This document shows, piece by piece, positions 9,990-42,451 of a stretch of DNA of 47,086 nt. This stretch comes from a phage: the NCBI GenBank assembly GCA_020364185.1, contig GCA_020364185.1_4846.1. One strand, 5' to 3'. The translations under genes and the position numbers were made by a program. The notes under the pieces were generated by a model, which saw only the letters and a list, made by a program, of their open reading frames with translations, did not search any database and was not told the origin of the DNA. The number at the start of each line of letters is the position of its first letter. The first letter of the stretch is position 1.

Positions 9990-11360
9990 TCAGATGTTGA
10001 ATTTTATTGTTGTGATGTACTTACTACCCCACGCAGAATCAGCTTGCGGGATAGTCGCGTAATCATCTACAGACGGAACGTTTACCACAGTTCCGTCGGA
10101 ATAGGTAATGTCAATGCTTGTTGCGCCATTCATTACTACTTTTGCTGATGTCGTTGGTCTGATTACCGGTGACGCCTCTGTTACTATCGGGGATGTGGCA
10201 AACGGTGATTTTTCTATTTGCATCGCGCACGCTAATATCCCGCTAACCCCGTCACCGGCGAATGAAGCAACAGCTGAGTTGTTGTATACCCATGACGCTA
10301 AAAGCAGAGAAGACGCGCCGCCCGGGCGTATAACTACCGTTTCTGTAAATCGATACCAACCATCACCAAGCTCTGTTATATCGCTACCAGAGCCGCCCGC
10401 GTAAATAGTCCCGGTCGATAAACCAGCAACACAATCCGCGATAAACCCCGCATCATCAGCGGCGCGAAGTCTCGCATAATTATAACCATAAGCCTTAGCA
10501 ACGTAACTGAGGGTGTATACATCACCATCCGCAAAAGCAGAAGACACTGATTGTTGTACGATATGGTTGCCATTTGTCGCGGTCGGAACTAGTGAGAACG
10601 TACCGCCGTTTAGAATTCCGTCAACTGCGTCTGACACTGTTGTGCTAGTTTTTGACCACGATGCGTCGGATAATTTCGACGATTTAATCAGGATATTGCT
10701 GGATGCAGGTTCCGGCGGCACGCGCCCAACGGCAACCCCATCAATAAACGTAAGAGGCCATTCATTAGTGGCGGACTGCACAAGATTGCCGTTGCGGTTG
10801 ATGTAGTATACCTGCGGACCATCGTAAACAATGCGACTATCAAGCGTAGATGACAGCATGTTAATTGGCATATGCAGTATCGGTGTCATATAGACTTGCG
10901 GGAGTTCACGGTTAACAACTTCGTCAAGCCAGCTATACCATCTGTAATCCAGTTCGACAAGAACATCATCGAACTCATCCATCGTGTTATTGAGTTTCTT
11001 GGCGATGACATTGCCGGTCCACGTCACTACGCCGCCATCAATGCTGGTCTGTACAGGGTAATCGGTAAAGTGCAGCGTCTGCTCCTGCAATCCGCTGCCG
11101 CCGAGGTCAATCATCATGGTGAACCAGTTATTACATTTGTTGAGGTAACTCGGACTACGCAACCACTGGATAAATGCACGCTCCTCCGCCAGTGTAAAAA
11201 TCCACGTCAGACTCCATGTGGCTGCAATGTCAGTCGTTAATTTTTGAAATATCGGCGCCCCAACGGCTGGGGTATCCTTCCTGAAAGGGGTCTGAAACGT
11301 AAGGTTTTTGCTAGATCTTTGCGCCAAAGGCAGCCAGTCAGGGTATTTGATGATAGCCAT
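9990..11360 (-). CDS. minor tail protein (distal tail-like)
   Basis: 456-aa ORF immediately downstream of tape measure gene (start codon shares a base with the TMP stop codon at 11360). Confidence 0.45.
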   Translation of the reverse strand: MAIIKYPDWLPLAQRSSKNLTFQTPFRKDTPAVGAPIFQKLTTDIAATWSLTWIFTLAEERAFIQWLRSPSYLNKCNNWFTMMIDLGGSGLQEQTLHFTDYPVQTSIDGGVVTWTGNVIAKKLNNTMDEFDDVLVELDYRWYSWLDEVVNRELPQVYMTPILHMPINMLSSTLDSRIVYDGPQVYYINRNGNLVQSATNEWPLTFIDGVAVGRVPPEPASSNILIKSSKLSDASWSKTSTTVSDAVDGILNGGTFSLVPTATNGNHIVQQSVSSAFADGDVYTLSYVAKAYGYNYARLRAADDAGFIADCVAGLSTGTIYAGGSGSDITELGDGWYRFTETVVIRPGGASSLLLASWVYNNSAVASFAGDGVSGILACAMQIEKSPFATSPIVTEASPVIRPTTSAKVVMNGATSIDITYSDGTVVNVPSVDDYATIPQADSAWGSKYITTIKFNI

Positions 11361-13735
11361 TATTCGGTTGCTCTCCGGTTTGCTGAGTAGTTGCGGCTAA
11401 TGCTTTGCCCAATGGGGCCGTTGTTTTCTATGTCACTAACGATAGTCTCAATTGTCACGCTGCCATCACCATTATCTCTGGCGCTGCTGCTGACCTGAGC
11501 GGAGCTATTGTTGATAACGCTATTATAAACCACAACGCCACTACCACCTCCGGTAATGTCTTTGTTGCTGATAACTGAGCCATCGTTGCCTGGAATCATG
11601 TACTGGCGACCGTTGGACGCCTGGAATATCTCAGGCAAGCCATTCTCTCCCACTTCGTACATGCTTCCGGCACTAACAGGGCCACCATTTTTACGCTTGC
11701 CAGCGATACCCATCGCTAGTGCCCCTAGAACGGCACCTACCCCAATTGCAGCCGCTCCACCGAATGAGCCGATTGATGCTACGATTGCTGCCGGAGTCCA
11801 TGCTGCGGTAGTGGTTGCTGCCGCCGCCGTGGATGCTGCTGTTGTGGTTGCCAGTCCTGCCGTTTGCGCCGCTGTGGTTGTCGCTGTGGCTGCAACCTGT
11901 GCAGTCTGCCCCATAACCGCAGATTTTACCCACTGCACGCCCATTTCGACGAAGCTGTTTACCAGCGAGTTAAGCACCGTAGAGCCGAGGCTACGCATGG
12001 CATCCTGAACGCTCATTGTACCTGTCAGCAATCCGGTAATACTGTTTGAGGCTGTGCTCATCGCGGAATCCAGTGCGGTTCCGAACAGTTGCGCTCCGAG
12101 GCTTTGCTGCTGCCATTCAGCCCACATGGCATCCATTCTCTGCTGGCGGTATTGTGCTTCAATGGACGCGCGAGTCTGTTCAATCTCTGTAATTTTTTGC
12201 GGGTACGCAGCAGCATAGGCTTCAAGGTCAGCCATGCGTTGCTGGTATTCGCTATCAATGCCAGACGTTGGCGATGCAATGGCGCGCAGTCCCTGATATG
12301 ATTTTTCTACACGCTGCCTTTCCTTCTCCGCTTCTGCCTGCTCCTTCAACGCATTCTTCTGGTCCCAAATCTTAGCGGCGTATTCTCCAGCCAGCTTTAT
12401 CTGCTCCTGAGTTGCCGCCTTGCCAAGTGATTGCTGAGCATTGAGAATGGCTTGTTCACGGGATAGTTCGCTGGTAGATGTAGCATTAAGCATGGTCTGC
12501 TGGCGTAACTTCTCCAGCTTTTCAGCGATTGATTCAGCTTGTCGTTCTTCGGCGCTTTTTCCCTTTCCTTTGCCTTTTTTGTCTTTGGTTGGTGCTTGTG
12601 CAATCTTCAGGTGTTTTGTTGCTTCAGCCTGCTTCTTTGTCTGCTCGTAACCTTCAGCGGATGCCTTAACAAATCGCTCAACCTGATCGTTGTATTGTTT
12701 TTGCTTTTCAATGTCGTCATCACCGAAAAGCGCATCCACCCCCATCTGAGCCCATGCGCCGGGGTTTAATTTCGAAATTACGGTTGCAAGAGAGAGAATC
12801 TTATCGCTTGTGCTGGTTGATTTATCGCCGAGAAAATCAATGTATTTTGCCAGTTGGTCGATAATCTCTACCGCTGTTTTTGATGCACCAGTAGCATCGT
12901 TAACGGCAACCACAAGTTTTGAGAATGAAACTTCAAGCGAGCCAACAGCCTGATCCATTGTGCGAGGGAGTTTTTCAAACTCAGCATTAACGACGCTTGT
13001 CCTGTCCTGAATGGCATTTAACGCATCCTCAGCAGTCAGTTTCCCGTCGAGCATTCTGGCGCGGAGTTCACCCATTGAAATGCCAAGTCCCGCTGCAATC
13101 TGGCGAGCAAGTTCCGGCATCTGTTCAAGGATAGAGTTAAATTCTTCGGCGCGGATTGTGCCAGAAGCGATTGACTGACCGAACTGACGCAGTGCGTTCG
13201 CCATTTCCTCAGTTGAAGAGCCTCCGATTCGACCTATTTTTTGTAGTGTATCGGTGAGGTTAAGCACCTGCGCATTCGTCGCGCCAGCCTCTTTCAGTGA
13301 TGATGTTAACGTTTCCCATAACTTCGTTGTATCACTGAGGCTTGCGCCAGTCGTTGATGCGATATTTGCCAGTGAGCTAAATGTTTCGTTCGCAGTTTTT
13401 GCATCAGTTGACAGGCGAGCAATTCTTGCCTGAAGCTGTGTCATGTTATCAGCAACCTCAAGGAATCTTTTCCCCCATTCGATAATCAACGACACGGATA
13501 TTGCACCAGCCAACATGGATATGCTGGTTTTAAGCCCTGAAGCTGCACCGCCAGCATTCTTCATTCCGCTGCCAGCATTGCGTGCGCCTTTGTCCAGTTT
13601 GTTAAGCTCACCAGTGGTTTTATTCAGTGATGATTCAAGGTCATCCAGAGTCTTGTTGGCTGTTGTCGCGCCAGCTTTCAGGCCTTTAACATCCATCCCA
13701 ACTTCATAAACAATTCCGCCGACTTCTTCAGCCAT
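11360..13735 (-). CDS. tail tape measure protein
   Basis: 791 aa, long alpha-helical/coiled-coil N-terminal two thirds, Ala/Gly/Thr-rich hydrophobic segment (AATATTTAAQTAGLATTTAASTAAAATTTAAWTPAAIVASIGSFGGAAAIGVGAVLGAL); between chaperone and minor tail genes. Confidence 0.8.
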   Translation of the reverse strand: MAEEVGGIVYEVGMDVKGLKAGATTANKTLDDLESSLNKTTGELNKLDKGARNAGSGMKNAGGAASGLKTSISMLAGAISVSLIIEWGKRFLEVADNMTQLQARIARLSTDAKTANETFSSLANIASTTGASLSDTTKLWETLTSSLKEAGATNAQVLNLTDTLQKIGRIGGSSTEEMANALRQFGQSIASGTIRAEEFNSILEQMPELARQIAAGLGISMGELRARMLDGKLTAEDALNAIQDRTSVVNAEFEKLPRTMDQAVGSLEVSFSKLVVAVNDATGASKTAVEIIDQLAKYIDFLGDKSTSTSDKILSLATVISKLNPGAWAQMGVDALFGDDDIEKQKQYNDQVERFVKASAEGYEQTKKQAEATKHLKIAQAPTKDKKGKGKGKSAEERQAESIAEKLEKLRQQTMLNATSTSELSREQAILNAQQSLGKAATQEQIKLAGEYAAKIWDQKNALKEQAEAEKERQRVEKSYQGLRAIASPTSGIDSEYQQRMADLEAYAAAYPQKITEIEQTRASIEAQYRQQRMDAMWAEWQQQSLGAQLFGTALDSAMSTASNSITGLLTGTMSVQDAMRSLGSTVLNSLVNSFVEMGVQWVKSAVMGQTAQVAATATTTAAQTAGLATTTAASTAAAATTTAAWTPAAIVASIGSFGGAAAIGVGAVLGALAMGIAGKRKNGGPVSAGSMYEVGENGLPEIFQASNGRQYMIPGNDGSVISNKDITGGGSGVVVYNSVINNSSAQVSSSARDNGDGSVTIETIVSDIENNGPIGQSISRNYSANRRATE

Positions 13736-14450
13736 TATGTATTCCTCGCTTTTTCGCTTTGCGTTCAGCCAGTGCCTTCATGCGCTCCCGGTCTGCTTTA
13801 GCCTGATCGTACTCTGCCGCGCGCTCTTCTTTTGTCAGCCCTTTCGGCTCAGGATATTTATTCTTAATCATCATCTGAAACTCTGTCATGGACAGATTCT
13901 CTGCCTCATCGCGCGACATATCGAAATGCGTGCGTGCCGAGATGATGTATTGCGACGCATGAAACTCGTTTGTGGTTTTCTTGCCCTGCTCCTCCAGACG
14001 CTCAGGCACCTTGAGTGGTGACTTGCCAATGATGCCGTGCTGCATCAGGTTGCGCGCAATAATAATAATGTCGCTCACTGGCATGATGCCTGGAACGTAT
14101 CGCACTCCGCGCGGTGTTGGTTTCCAGCCACCAATCAGCACGGAAGCATCATCTTCACAGCATGACTGCATGACGATATAGGCAGCACTCAGCACGTGGC
14201 GACCATAAGCAGGCTTGCTGATGGTCTTCATAACCTGCATCTGTGCGCCAAATGGCAGGTATTCGACGTGCTGCAATGGCGCAACATAATCAATGCCATT
14301 GAGCTTAGCGTACACCTCGACGATTTCCTTTGGTGTGCCAATTTCGTTCATGGCGCGGAATGATGGCTTAAAGAAAAAACTCTTATCAGCCAGCGAGATG
14401 CGCATCTCCCCGATTTCTGTTAGTGGCGTGCGATTGCTCATGTTTTGCAT
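13728..14450 (-). CDS. tail assembly chaperone (putative)
   Basis: 240-aa ORF between major tail protein side and tape measure gene; basic/acidic C-terminal tail; no frameshift partner examined. Confidence 0.4.
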   Translation of the reverse strand: MQNMSNRTPLTEIGEMRISLADKSFFFKPSFRAMNEIGTPKEIVEVYAKLNGIDYVAPLQHVEYLPFGAQMQVMKTISKPAYGRHVLSAAYIVMQSCCEDDASVLIGGWKPTPRGVRYVPGIMPVSDIIIIARNLMQHGIIGKSPLKVPERLEEQGKKTTNEFHASQYIISARTHFDMSRDEAENLSMTEFQMMIKNKYPEPKGLTKEERAAEYDQAKADRERMKALAERKAKKRGIHNG

Positions 14451-14490
14451 CCTGAATTTGACTGATGTTGATTATATCATCTCAGTGGTG

Positions 14491-14519
14491 TTGACACCTG
14501 CGGGGAGGTGATGTAGATT
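14491..14519 (+). promoter_or_regulatory. sigma70-like promoter (TTGACA - 17 bp - TAGATT) for plus-strand moron cassette
   Basis: TTGACA at 14491-14496, 17-bp spacer, TAGATT at 14514-14519, then GAGGTGAG RBS and ATG at 14555. Confidence 0.5.
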
Positions 14520-14554
14520 CAATTCATCGAAACGAGATATGAATGAGGTGAGTT

Positions 14555-14749
14555 ATGGATGTTGTTATTTTGTTGTTTTTCGCTGGGTTGGTGATATTTG
14601 CTTATCTTCTCCAATCATTTGTGGCATTGCAAAGAAAGCACACAAATACGACCGCAATCTGTGTGCTGAATATTCTTGTAGGGTGGAGCTTTATTGGGTG
14701 GGTTGCAGCACTTGTTTGGTCATTAGTTAACAGTGGCGACAAGAAATGA
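14555..14749 (+). CDS. small membrane protein resembling superinfection-immunity (Imm-type) proteins
   Basis: 64 aa, two hydrophobic helices; motif NILVGWSFIGWVAALVWSL resembles conserved GW-x-IGW core recalled for small Imm-like membrane proteins. Confidence 0.45.
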   Translation: MDVVILLFFAGLVIFAYLLQSFVALQRKHTNTTAICVLNILVGWSFIGWVAALVWSLVNSGDKK

Positions 14750-14889
14750 ACGAACAAACAAAAGCTGACCTGATTTTCTACACTGATTTGTATGTCGATG
14801 CAGGTTACGATTACGAAGAAGCAGAGCGCATGGCCAAAGACTTGCTTCGTGTGATTGGTGTGATTTTTGATAAGGATAAGGTGATATGA
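14746..14889 (+). CDS. hypothetical protein (47 aa), translationally coupled
   Basis: hand-translated ORF MNEQTKADLIFYTDLYVDAGYDYEEAERMAKDLLRVIGVIFDKDKVI; ATG overlaps upstream stop and its stop overlaps downstream ATG. Confidence 0.3.
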   Translation: MNEQTKADLIFYTDLYVDAGYDYEEAERMAKDLLRVIGVIFDKDKVI

Positions 14890-15230
14890 AAAATTATGAA
14901 GACATGAGTGATTTTGAGATTAACTGCGAAGTACTTGCATTGTTTGAGCCAGATGTTAATCACATGTGCCTTAGTGAAAGTAAGGGGTATTTCTATGACT
15001 GTGGACCAGTAGGTGATGGGTGGCATCAAATAGATATCCCTGACTACTGCAATAACCCGGAATACGCATTACCGATTATTTTAGCCAATCGAATTGGAAT
15101 GCTGCCATCAGAAATGAAGTGCAAAGAGCAGTGGATTTCAACTTCTGGTAAGGGCCAGTTCGAATATCATGAGAACCCTTTACGCGCCGCCATGATCGTC
15201 TTCCTGAAAATGAATGAGGATAAATTATGA
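14886..15230 (+). CDS. hypothetical protein
   Basis: 114-aa ORF in plus-strand cassette; ATGA overlaps with flanking ORFs. Confidence 0.45.
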   Translation: MKNYEDMSDFEINCEVLALFEPDVNHMCLSESKGYFYDCGPVGDGWHQIDIPDYCNNPEYALPIILANRIGMLPSEMKCKEQWISTSGKGQFEYHENPLRAAMIVFLKMNEDKL

Positions 15231-15427
15231 GCCAGTGGATTAAGTGCAGTGATAGGATGCCTGAAGAAGGTCAAATGGTTCTCACGTCGTTTCGTGGTGT
15301 TGTTAGAACAGCAGTATGCAAAACAGTCGATGGAATTGGAAGCAAGATATTTGTTAGTGAATTAGACCGCTGTCACGGCATTCCAGCTACCCATTGGGCC
15401 AATACACCAGAGCCACCACAAGAATAA
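15227..15427 (+). CDS. DUF551-like small protein
   Basis: 66 aa with W-x-K/C-x-D-x-MPEE...VL...THWA..PEPP pattern, paralogous in style to 19864-20127 (WIDVNDELPE...VL...THWMYLPELP). Confidence 0.45.
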   Translation: MSQWIKCSDRMPEEGQMVLTSFRGVVRTAVCKTVDGIGSKIFVSELDRCHGIPATHWANTPEPPQE

Positions 15428-15430
15428 AAC

Positions 15431-15457
15431 AAAGCCCCTTTCGGGGCTTTTTCTTTA
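15431..15457. terminator. bidirectional intrinsic terminator
   Basis: AAGCCCC-tttc-GGGGCTT stem-loop followed by TTTTCTTTAT; sits between plus-strand cassette end and minus-strand major tail gene end. Confidence 0.65.
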
Positions 15458-16174
15458 TCAGGATACGGTGCAAGCCGTGCTGATGATAATTTCCGGGTCA
15501 GTAGATGAGTCCGTGACCGTGACGGTATACACGCCAGCGGTAGGGCTTGCCAGTGTTGCGCCAGACTCACCACCAACAACTACGCCATCTTTGCGCCATA
15601 CATAAGTGTAAGGAGCGACGCCACCCTCAACAGCAACGGTTAACGGGCTGCCAGTGCTGCCAGTTGATTGCAGGTCGGTAGTGAACGTCAGAGGTTCAAG
15701 GCTTTCTACGGTAACGCTATCTGAATCGTAAACCTTGAACTCAAGGCTGCCGGTTACGATGTCGTTTGTGCCGCCTTCGTAGCTGATGCTGGTAATGTTA
15801 CAGTACGCAGTAACGATAGTCGCGCCAGTTACTTCACGCACCCACAAGGAAGGCTGGCGACGCGCTTTCAGTTCAGTGGCGTAAATCTCAACCAGACGAT
15901 GGAAGCCAAACTCATCGCTAGGGTCATTCTTGCGGATTTCAACCTCTGCGCTGATGGTCATATCAGAGCTGGTAACGAGAGTGGAAACAAAGCCACCAGC
16001 GGTATCCGCTTCCGACGTGGTGGTCTGCGGAGAGTAGTCAACGCCTTTACTGGTGGTTGATCCTAAATACTTCCAGTCTCCTGCTTCCGGAACTGCGTCG
16101 CCGCACCCTTCAGCAAGGAACAGTCGGGTCATGCGACCGACCAGAACGCCTTTATCATTTGCACAAATAGCCAT
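15458..16174 (-). CDS. major tail protein with C-terminal Ig-like domain
   Basis: 238 aa; C-terminal segment PLTVAVEGGVAPYTYVWRKDGVVVGGESGATLASPTAGVYTVTVTD is a typical phage Ig-like domain signature; located upstream of chaperone/TMP as expected. Confidence 0.6.
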   Translation of the reverse strand: MAICANDKGVLVGRMTRLFLAEGCGDAVPEAGDWKYLGSTTSKGVDYSPQTTTSEADTAGGFVSTLVTSSDMTISAEVEIRKNDPSDEFGFHRLVEIYATELKARRQPSLWVREVTGATIVTAYCNITSISYEGGTNDIVTGSLEFKVYDSDSVTVESLEPLTFTTDLQSTGSTGSPLTVAVEGGVAPYTYVWRKDGVVVGGESGATLASPTAGVYTVTVTDSSTDPEIIISTACTVS

Positions 16175-16225
16175 TTCGATCTCCGAATTGTGTTAGCTGC
16201 TAACGTGGTGATTATATCACAGGTG

Positions 16226-16254
16226 TTGACAGTGATTATTTTGTGGTGTAGATT
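16226..16254 (+). promoter_or_regulatory. sigma70-like promoter (TTGACA - 17 bp - TAGATT) heading the tRNA-containing plus-strand unit
   Basis: TTGACA 16226-16231, 17-bp spacer, TAGATT 16249-16254; region homologous to the 14467-14519 promoter cassette. Confidence 0.5.
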
Positions 16255-16520
16255 AAGATTTAACAGAGATTGGCTCCCTGATTTCATTTAATTACATCCA
16301 ATCCTTCAATTACAATTAGCGGTCGAAAGGCGCCGGACGCGTAACCGGCATACAACAGGTAAGAGCATTGGCGCATATCAGCGGAACTCGAACCCATTGC
16401 GCAGGCGACACAGACGTGTGTTTCAGTGTTCTTTCCGTTGTGGTAATGCCATATTGATTATTTGGATAGGTTTGCATCCATTGTTATGCCAGTTTCAGTT
16501 AATCGCGAAACGCCACAACA

Positions 16521-16586
16521 CTTAATATCCAGCATTATCGCAATCATATGTAGGGGTATGTATGGGTTACGGCGCTGGATATTAAG
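16521..16586. repeat. perfect 13-bp inverted repeat (CTTAATATCCAGC / GCTGGATATTAAG) enclosing a 40-nt loop
   Basis: read directly: left arm 16521-16533, right arm 16574-16586, in ORF-free leader upstream of the tRNA. Confidence 0.6.
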
Positions 16587-16620
16587 AAAGCACGCTGGCA
16601 ATGCTTAAACCAGCACTTAT

Positions 16621-16697
16621 GGACGCGTAGCTTAATTGGTTAAAGCAACCGACTCATAATCGGCTGATTGAAGGTTCAAATCCGTCCGTGTCCACCA
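16621..16697 (+). tRNA. tRNA-Met (anticodon CAU; could be initiator/elongator Met or lysidine-modified Ile2)
   Basis: manual fold: 7-bp acceptor stem (one G-U), U8, D-arm GCTT/AAGC with GG in loop, anticodon loop CUCAUAA, T-loop TTCAAAT, discriminator A and encoded CCA; two stem mismatches. Confidence 0.6.
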
Positions 16698-16702
16698 AAT
16701 TA

Positions 16703-16730
16703 AAAGCCGCTTCATGCGGCTTTATTTATT
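16703..16730. terminator. intrinsic terminator after tRNA (also at 3' end of convergent minus gene)
   Basis: AAGCCGC-ttcat-GCGGCTT stem-loop followed by TATTTATTT. Confidence 0.55.
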
Positions 16731-17272: not shown

Positions 17273-17764
17273 ATGATTTCAGAGCGTGATTACATAGCAA
17301 TCGCGTCAAGAGTTAAATACGACCCGATTACCGGATTGTTCACCTGGGCTGTAAGTTGCGGGAAAATATCAAAAGGTGATATTGCAAACTATCACAACGA
17401 CGCAGGATACATAACCCTTGGGAAGAAAAGATTAAGGGCGCACCGAGTGGCTTGGTTTATCCATTATGGATATGTCCCTGAGCATGAAATTGATCACATA
17501 AACAATATTCGTGATGACAATAGAATTTCAAATCTGAGGGAGGCCAGTGACTGCGAGAACGCAAGGAACACAAAGATATCTAAATCAAACACGTCTGGAT
17601 ATAAAGGAGTTCATTTTTGCAAGTGCACTGGGAAATGGAGAGCCACGGTAAAGATGCATGGGAAAACCTATCATCTTGGTAGGTTTTCAGACAAAGAAGC
17701 AGCCCATAAAGCCTATTGCAAAAAAGTAGATGAACTGTTTTTGGAGTTCGCAAACCACGGCTAA
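17273..17764 (+). CDS. HNH homing endonuclease with AP2-like DNA-binding domain
   Basis: GGAGG RBS then ATG 17273; motifs RLRAHRVAWFIHYGYVPEHEIDHINNIRDDNRISNLREAS (HNH) and SGYKGVHFCKCTGKWRATVKMHGKTYHLGRFSDKEAAHKAY (AP2-like); opposite strand to surrounding structural genes. Confidence 0.75.
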   Translation: MISERDYIAIASRVKYDPITGLFTWAVSCGKISKGDIANYHNDAGYITLGKKRLRAHRVAWFIHYGYVPEHEIDHINNIRDDNRISNLREASDCENARNTKISKSNTSGYKGVHFCKCTGKWRATVKMHGKTYHLGRFSDKEAAHKAYCKKVDELFLEFANHG

Positions 17765-42420: not shown

Positions 42421-42451
42421 TCAATCTACATCAATGAAGATTCTACGTCAA
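42421..42451 (-). promoter_or_regulatory. promoter region with TTGACGTAGAAT and TGATGTAGATT on minus strand
   Basis: GATTCTACGTCAA 42439-42451 and TCAATCTACATCA 42421-42433. Confidence 0.45.

Follow-up and report, generated by a model that had tools for sequence, protein, structure and literature searches.

A promoter-to-terminator gene cassette in the tail module of an Sf11-like siphophage is headed by a predicted membrane protein of the Imm superinfection immunity family

Gene content and regulatory signals of the cassette

The 47,086-bp phage sequence analyzed here (contig GCA_020364185.1_4846.1, referred to below as the window) carries, at positions 14491 to 15457, a compact four-gene cassette that is read from the plus strand and lies between the chaperone/tape-measure genes and the major tail gene, all of which are on the minus strand. 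The first gene of this cassette, open reading frame 1 (ORF1), encodes a predicted membrane protein of 64 amino acids (aa) from the same family as Imm, the superinfection exclusion protein of phage T4. The following features were assigned to the cassette.

14491..14519, plus strand: sigma-70-type promoter, TTGACA-17 nucleotides (nt)-TAGATT, matching the consensus at 10 of 12 positions
14555..14749, plus strand: ORF1, 64 aa, Imm-family two-helix predicted membrane protein (PF14373; phrog_1039)
14746..14889, plus strand: ORF2, 47 aa, acidic clade-specific protein (phrog_17424, E = 1e-35)
14886..15230, plus strand: ORF3, 114 aa, NinX/DUF2591 protein (PF10765, Phage_P22_NinX; phrog_444)
15227..15427, plus strand: ORF4, 66 aa, DUF551 protein (PF04448)
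15431..15457, called on both strands: bidirectional intrinsic terminator with an 8-bp stem (AAAGCCCC/GGGGCTTT), a TTTC loop, and T-runs on both strands

Related phages were represented by 55 viral-contig loci anchored on the DUF6246 protein, which is encoded next to the cassette, and by annotated GenBank regions; the cassette is present in 41 of the loci. An earlier note on this DNA, written from the sequence alone, had described a promoter-to-terminator unit opposite to the tail genes, with ORFs of 64, 47, and 114 aa and a DUF551-like ORF linked by overlapping stop and start codons. That description proved accurate. The coordinates are right, the genes on both sides are on the minus strand, all three ORF junctions are ATGA stop/start overlaps, and ORF4 matches the full length of the PF04448 profile (45 bits, with a threshold of 22; E = 2e-11). 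The present analysis adds that the 114-aa ORF encodes a NinX/DUF2591 protein.

Taken alone, the match of the cassette promoter to the consensus is no better than chance (6 sites in the region versus 4.6 expected). It was accepted not because of its score but because both hexamers are exactly retained in all 41 cassette-bearing loci, despite 17 distinct spacers of 17 or 18 nt. An identical hexamer pair is found at positions 16226-16254, and a copy with one mismatch (TTGACg-17-TAGATT) is found on the minus strand at 42423-42451. The terminator is likewise kept in all 41 loci and shows a compensatory stem change from G-C to C-G in L036 and L037, the most divergent of them. Its hairpin with T-runs, at 15431-15450, has a folding energy of -13.1 kcal/mol (z = -3.4), and it is predicted to serve the major tail gene, which is convergent, as well as the cassette.

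The reading frames of ORF1, ORF2, and ORF4 can be regarded as coding because the sites that vary among the relatives are mainly third codon positions (17/9/46 variable sites at positions 1/2/3 in ORF1, 9/8/29 in ORF2, and 12/11/36 in ORF4). A 63-aa ORF that overlaps ORF1 in another frame (14539-14730) was rejected in favor of the Imm frame, which has the Pfam match, the ribosome-binding site, and the codon-position pattern. A search of both strands of the cassette against Rfam gave no match. The GC content of the cassette is 41.8%, compared to 50.6% and 53.1% in the flanking genes, which places it among the lowest 12% of windows of the same size.

ORF1 is a member of the Imm family

The ORF1 start codon is immediately preceded by a GAGGTGA Shine-Dalgarno sequence. 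The earlier note had pointed to a two-helix protein with a GW-x-IGW motif reminiscent of superinfection immunity proteins and had named a profile search without similarity to Imm-type families among the grounds for refutation. This search matched ORF1 to the Pfam family PF14373 (Imm_superinfect) with 57.3 bits and E = 1.4e-15 over profile positions 2-42 of 42, well above the gathering threshold of 27.9 bits; with this model, T4 Imm reaches a score of 58.2 bits. ORF1 also matches PHROG 1039, “immunity to superinfection,” with E = 3e-21 and aligns with T4 Imm in BLASTP with 36% identity over 53 aa (E = 5e-11). Judged by these profile and pairwise scores, ORF1 is a true homolog of T4 Imm. The only other family in a Pfam scan of ORF1 at E ≤ 1 was DUF3302, below threshold, with no similarity to gp15/YebO, and no solved structure for ORF1 was found by sequence search. 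The NCBI entry with the exact ORF1 sequence, EIH4118658.1, is already named “superinfection immunity protein” by PGAP; since ORF1 is labeled in public records, the assignment in itself adds little as a discovery.

The motif noted earlier is formed by residues G43 W44 S45 F46 I47 G48 W49, and the two helices are supported by hydropathy, with hydrophobic segments at residues 1-27 and 32-59, and by an AlphaFold2 model, which is a helical hairpin with helices 2-27 and 32-59 (predicted local distance difference test score [pLDDT] of 75.6). The loop between the helices, QRKH, is positively charged. Residues R27 and W44 of ORF1 align with R33 and W50 of T4 Imm, and the R33A and W50A substitutions in Imm weaken T4 exclusion (bioRxiv 10.64898/2026.03.06.709160). 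W44 is invariant in the clade, and R27 is nearly so.

The window copy deviates from its relatives at two positions. Codon 20 (14612-14614) is CAA, coding for Gln, in place of the Pro found in the other 21 sequences of alignment A1, in all related loci, and in T4 (P26). The A56S replacement is likewise unique to this copy. The exact sequence with Q20 is found on only 2 contigs.

Homologs of PF14373 were detected in 1172 of 50,697 phage records, including those of phages that have no tape measure protein. Elsewhere, imm genes are located in early or immunity regions, as in T4, N4-like phages, Obolenskvirus, and cluster A mycobacteriophages. Literature searches for PF14373 gave incidental mentions only; the cassette and superinfection are mentioned neither in the paper on the Sf11 tail structure nor in the paper on phage swi2.

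Distribution and variable gene content of the cassette

The earlier note had proposed a comparison with relatives for the presence or absence of the cassette. In close relatives, the full gene order is a 91-aa tail-anchored protein, a 97- to 116-aa signal-peptide protein (PHROG 2315), Imm, the 47-aa protein, a NinX-like protein, and a DUF551-like protein. The first three of these and the NinX-like gene are optional, the 47-aa gene is always present, and the DUF551-like gene is nearly always present. Imm is encoded in 31 of the 41 cassette loci, adjacent to the 47-aa gene wherever both occur; in phage swi2 it is 104 aa long, with an additional N-terminal hydrophobic segment. Thus, the earlier description of a four-gene cassette is correct as a count for the window, where all four genes are present, but these genes do not make up a fixed functional set, as only the 47-aa gene is constant.

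The cassette is missing from 14 more distant relatives (30-47% identity in DUF6246), in which the major tail and chaperone genes are only ~66-330 bp apart and the short gap contains a hairpin followed by a GATAAT element. Because of this absence at the site, a GC content ~10 points below that of the flanks, and its own conserved signals, the cassette is, on comparative grounds, an inserted unit that carries regulatory signals of its own and whose gene content is shuffled; its architecture is moron-like. The term “moron” used in the earlier note applies with respect to these three properties but not with respect to prophage expression. Strictly, the term denotes a unit that a prophage expresses (Juhala et al. 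2000; PMC3594210). Expression from a repressed prophage for the benefit of the lysogen does not fit the phages considered here, given that Sf11 has no annotated integrase and the abstract on swi2 describes that phage as virulent.

The two additional envelope proteins are absent from the window; in many relatives, the 97-aa signal-peptide protein and the 91-aa protein are encoded upstream of imm or replace it. Examples include the following.

L002:2660-2953: extra envelope protein, C1 ORF10
L003:2641-2916: extra envelope protein, BS5 gp34
L019 and L023: further relatives with extra envelope proteins

The 97- to 116-aa protein has a signal peptide and two conserved cysteines, and the AlphaFold2 model of its 97-aa version is a four-helix bundle (pLDDT of 79). 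The 91-aa protein is anchored at its C terminus and is mislabeled as “ABC transporter permease.” The 97-aa protein, which equals T4 Spackle in length and has two cysteines, was considered as its analog, in which case counterparts of both T4 exclusion proteins could have been part of the cassette. This candidate was rejected: BLASTP against T4 Sp gave E = 9.1, a sequence search of PDB gave nothing credible, and Foldseek against PDB gave no match at E ≤ 0.001 and no Spackle.

The other cassette genes

ORF2 belongs to a PHROG family of unknown function and is the only gene that no version of the cassette is missing, with or without Imm (41 of 41 loci); in two more divergent loci it is the first gene. 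It had no match in Pfam, NCBIfam, or PADLOC. A word-index search recovered 10 related proteins, and an exhaustive profile search of 1.84 billion proteins recovered 10 representative clusters at E ≤ 1e-3. By the outcome of these searches, ORF2 is a near-orphan restricted to this phage clade.

ORF3 matches PF10765 over 113 of 114 profile positions (31.3 bits, with a threshold of 22.6; E = 2.7e-7) and phrog_444 with E = 4e-29, and its exact sequence is named “DUF2591 family protein” in NCBI. The NinX slot is filled in 16 of the 41 loci, with only 35-46% identity to the window allele, and the best match to ORF3 among the 50,697 phage records is 58% identical. Its 90%-identity cluster consists mostly of proteins encoded on chromosomal contigs of enterobacteria (E. 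coli, E. fergusonii, Salmonella, Shigella, and Cronobacter), which likely represent prophages. Because relatives with at least 90% identity sit on chromosomal contigs and those in phage records reach at most 58%, these data point to a recent exchange of the ORF3 allele between the window phage and temperate phages or prophages.

The slot of ORF4 holds a DUF551-like gene in 38 of the 41 loci, with 31-100% identity. Both NinX and DUF551 are widespread in unrelated phage contexts. A PADLOC search with the four cassette proteins gave no credible match, the only marginal one being that of ORF1 to 2TM-TIR (E = 0.005). ORF2, ORF3, and ORF4 are best viewed as independent passenger accessory genes, whose partnership with Imm is not demonstrable.

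The phage and the surrounding tail genes

The best match of the window is Shigella phage Sf11, which covers 80% of its first 25 kb at 91% identity, and the window resembles the siphophages of the Sf11/C1/BS5/swi2/IME207 group (genera Cedarrivervirus, Deseoctovirus, and Skatevirus). All four cassette proteins have identical entries in NCBI (EIH4118658.1 to EIH4118661.1, from an E. coli assembly). The contig of that assembly that carries these exact proteins is 47,086 bp long; therefore, the window is the entire ~47-kb genome of a siphophage from the Sf11/C1/BS5/swi2 group. Sf11, the closest annotated relative, lacks an annotated integrase, and the window was not searched for one gene by gene; swi2 is described as virulent in the abstract of its paper. 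Phages of this group appear to be virulent, not lysogenizing.

One of the relatives, vB_AbaM_AB4P2 (GenBank OR544125.1; L001), is deposited as an Acinetobacter phage. In the regions that were compared, its identity to the present group of enterobacterial siphophages is ~90-95%, and its host and morphotype labels may be wrong. A 143-aa ORF that follows its major tail gene looks spurious and has no intact counterpart in the window.

The features next to the cassette are as follows.

11360..13735, minus strand: tape measure protein, 791 aa (label in annotated relatives; hydropathy)
13728..14450, minus strand: DUF6246 “putative tail protein,” 240 aa, at the position of the tail assembly chaperone (PF19759, E = 6e-73; phrog_791)
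14470..14479, minus strand: extended -10 element TGATATAAT(C), TGnTATAAT, located ~20 nt upstream of the DUF6246 gene (13728-14450), in a back-to-back arrangement with the promoter of the cassette
15458..16174, minus strand: major tail protein with a C-terminal Ig-like domain (phrog_853, E = 5e-86)

The DUF6246 gene immediately precedes the tape measure gene and is divergent from the cassette, and the major tail gene is convergent with it. By hydropathy, residues 67-86 and 648-680 of the tape measure protein form hydrophobic segments. Where most siphophages encode two tail-chaperone ORFs linked by a programmed frameshift, the window has a single 240-aa DUF6246 ORF (13728-14450, minus strand).

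Exact minus-strand copies of the TGATATAAT element are found at 14470-14479 and, upstream of the gene for the major tail protein, at 16210-16219. The TGnTATAAT form is present in all 41 loci, with n altered in L036 and L037. Because this minus-strand element is kept in all of these loci, it suggests that the tail genes are transcribed from -35-independent promoters. The back-to-back arrangement of a minus-strand TGATATAATC with a plus-strand TTGACA-17-TAGATT is found twice in the window (14470-14519 and 16210-16254).

The second of these modules opens another plus-strand island among the minus-strand structural genes (16226-16725), in which the promoter (16226-16254) is followed by a leader of ~370 nt with no credible ORF and no Rfam match, a tRNA-Met (CAT) gene at 16621-16697, and a hairpin at ~16702-16725. 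This island looks like another variable slot, because at the same site Sf11 has a tRNA-Ser, a tRNA-Arg, and a 58-aa ORF. An HNH endonuclease gene (17273-17764, plus strand) interrupts the minus-strand head-tail connector genes; it occurs in some relatives (BS5 and AB4P2), but Sf11 and C1 lack it at this site, a pattern expected of a mobile homing endonuclease.

Proposed superinfection exclusion and alternative explanations

The explanation favored here, with moderate confidence, is that ORF1 is an early-expressed superinfection exclusion protein that would act at the step of DNA entry, probably via the tape measure protein, and that the rest of the cassette consists of passengers. The cassette forms a self-contained accessory unit that is inserted, opposite in strand, where the chaperone/tape-measure genes adjoin the major tail gene. 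Its transcription by host RNA polymerase would most likely start from the near-consensus sigma-70 promoter soon after infection, and the single polycistronic mRNA would direct the synthesis of four translationally coupled small proteins. ORF1 would most likely insert into the inner membrane as a helical hairpin and would stop the DNA of later-arriving phages of the same or related types from crossing this membrane, presumably by binding, in analogy with T4 Imm, that part of their tape measure protein which acts on the membrane. The infected cell would thereby be spared superinfection. Early lytic expression, as in the case of T4 imm, would fit better than a prophage moron because Sf11 has no annotated integrase.

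The choice of target follows T4 Imm, for which a 2026 preprint reports both copurification with and binding to the helical-bundle domain of gp29, the T4 tape measure protein (bioRxiv 10.64898/2026.03.06.709160); by analogy, the tape measure protein encoded in the window would be the presumed target of ORF1. Across the relatives, this protein is a strong mosaic, in which N termini of four types and hydrophobic C-terminal segments of two types occur in most combinations (window gene versus L004-L039). Its length in the relatives ranges from 778 to 1097 aa, with an additional 642-aa ORF in the divergent L036. In the loci with a mosaic tape measure, the DUF6246 protein is mostly 96-98% identical, with two loci at 91% and two at 66-67%. 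Each of the 18 loci whose tape measure protein has the window's N-terminal type encodes Imm, compared to 7 of the 17 loci with other types (Fisher's exact test, P = 1e-4), and the phages without Imm mostly have long tape measure proteins (P = 0.0012). This association is suggestive only, because the genes are less than 1 kb apart, the phages are not independent, and the Imm sequence is constant across the types; it may reflect physical linkage and shared ancestry.

Several observations weigh against the exclusion mechanism proposed above. The early timing is read from the type of promoter only. Imm is missing from 10 of the 41 cassette loci, 8 of them from close relatives, and is therefore dispensable. 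Covariation of Imm with the tape measure protein was considered and rejected: Imm is nearly invariant across all tape measure types, and no allele covariation across types points to a specific pairing of the two proteins. Since N4-like podophages carry Imm homologs and have no tape measure protein, tape measure binding cannot be a universal mechanism of PF14373. In the window itself, a near-invariant Pro of the first helix is replaced by Q20, so that this copy may be weakened or altered. Finally, no functional study of siphophage Imm members (exclusion, localization, or binding) was found in the searchable literature.

A broader, doubtful proposal is that the space separating the chaperone/tape-measure genes from the major tail gene serves as a dedicated swap site for envelope-acting exclusion factors whose genes remain linked to that of their target tape measure protein. 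It was put forward because an envelope protein stands at the head of the cassette, the presence of Imm follows the tape measure protein's N-terminal type, and the DNA-entry blockers of HK97 and of Jerseyvirus, an unrelated siphophage lineage, are encoded at nearly the same spot. Throughout the clade, the cassette begins with at least one envelope protein (Imm, the 97- to 116-aa signal-peptide protein, or the 91-aa tail-anchored protein). If this were true, siphophage Imm would be a tape-measure-specific “immunity protein,” comparable to the colicin immunity proteins, and the 97-aa and 47-aa proteins would be new exclusion or counterexclusion factors.

The deviating residues of the window copy could also mean that ORF1 is decaying or inactive in this isolate and that the cassette is kept for its other genes, chiefly that of the 47-aa protein. 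Q20 in place of the conserved Pro, the unique A56S, and the presence of the exact sequence on just 2 contigs would agree with such decay, as would the fact that the 47-aa gene, in contrast to Imm, is never lost. However, the ORF is intact, has a strong ribosome-binding site, and shows very few differences from its relatives; variation in the clade falls mainly in third codon positions, the residues tested in T4 are retained, and function could survive the exchange of one Pro for Gln in a transmembrane helix. This explanation is considered unlikely.

Quite unlikely, too, is a role of ORF1 in the phage's own cycle, either in the timing of lysis, as a partner of a holin or antiholin, or in protection from lysis from without. 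The shape of a small two-helix membrane protein is common to many holins and antiholins, and T4 Imm is the sole member of a very broad family (the 1172 records cited above) with a tested function. Yet the lysis genes (holin, endolysins, and spanin) are annotated ~15 kb from the cassette in Sf11, whereas ORF1 lies beside the tail genes, matches the full length of the Imm model, and keeps both of the residues implicated in T4 exclusion. That the four genes form one host-takeover or antidefense module, with the membrane protein as one component, is highly improbable: the shared promoter and terminator, the ATGA coupling, and the constant adjacency of Imm and the 47-aa gene would be in keeping with it, but composition varies freely (Imm missing from 10 loci, NinX at 16 of 41, and NinX/DUF551 alleles only 31-46% identical), many relatives have the extra 91- and 97-aa genes upstream, PADLOC gave no credible match, and NinX and DUF551 recur in unrelated phages.

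Superinfection exclusion by ORF1 would have several implications. If ORF1 works like T4 Imm, infected cells would be closed to sibling and related phages within minutes. This would change the reading of competition among cocirculating siphophages and would bear on the design of phage cocktails, as many of the relatives have been proposed for the biocontrol of Salmonella, E. coli, and Shigella. A 64-aa protein encoded ~800 bp from the gene for its presumed target would also offer a compact system for studying tape-measure blocking as a general exclusion strategy.

Comparison with known systems

Among published relatives, the same cassette occurs in Shigella phage Sf11 (gp20-gp23), Escherichia phage C1 (ORF10-14), Salmonella phage BS5, and vB_AbaM_AB4P2, with identical position, promoter, and terminator. 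Their Imm proteins are 86-97% identical to ORF1 and are annotated as “immunity to superinfection”; the note to Sf11 gp21 cites pfam14373. Many of the relatives differ from the window in having an extra 97-aa or 91-aa gene or in lacking NinX or Imm, and the window stands apart by Q20 and by a NinX allele with at most 58% identity to phage records.

A similar arrangement is seen in the Jerseyvirus (Guernseyvirinae) vB_SenS-Ent2, whose gp24 is an Imm homolog (38% identity, E = 4e-13). The gene for gp24 likewise heads a cassette on the reverse strand, with the major tail gene on one side and the chaperone/tape-measure genes on the other. However, the downstream genes of that cassette (exonuclease, HNH, and Ant) are unrelated to those in the window, the major tail proteins of the two phages have no detectable similarity, and their tape measure proteins are similar only in the C-terminal ~170 aa.

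T4 Imm (NP_049660; UniProt P08986) and ORF1 belong to the same Pfam family with nearly equal scores and share two hydrophobic helices, the (G/N)W-S-(F/I)-I-G-W motif, and the residues equivalent to R33 and W50; both are found in lytically growing phages. They differ in length (83 aa in T4 and 64 aa in ORF1, which lacks the C-terminal tail of the T4 protein) and in the Gln that replaces P26. They also differ in context: T4 imm lies in the early region of a myophage, near genes 42 and 43, whereas ORF1 is part of a reverse-strand unit in the tail module of a siphophage.

The other system to be compared is gp15 of phage HK97, an inner-membrane protein that blocks DNA entry in a manner dependent on the tail of the incoming phage (Cumby et al. 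2012, summarized in PMC3594210). Gene 15, located between the tail chaperone and tape measure genes, was the first element to be called a moron (Juhala 2000; PMC3594210). The two proteins are not homologous, as gp15 belongs to the YebO family and ORF1 scores above threshold only for PF14373. In addition, gp15 is the product of a single prophage-expressed gene, in contrast to the four genes on the opposite strand in the apparently virulent phage of the window. Still, both units encode a small inner-membrane protein (predicted to be so in the case of ORF1), carry a promoter and a terminator of their own, and are placed in the tail operon beside the tape measure gene, which makes HK97 gp15 the closest analog of ORF1 in architecture and in proposed mechanism.

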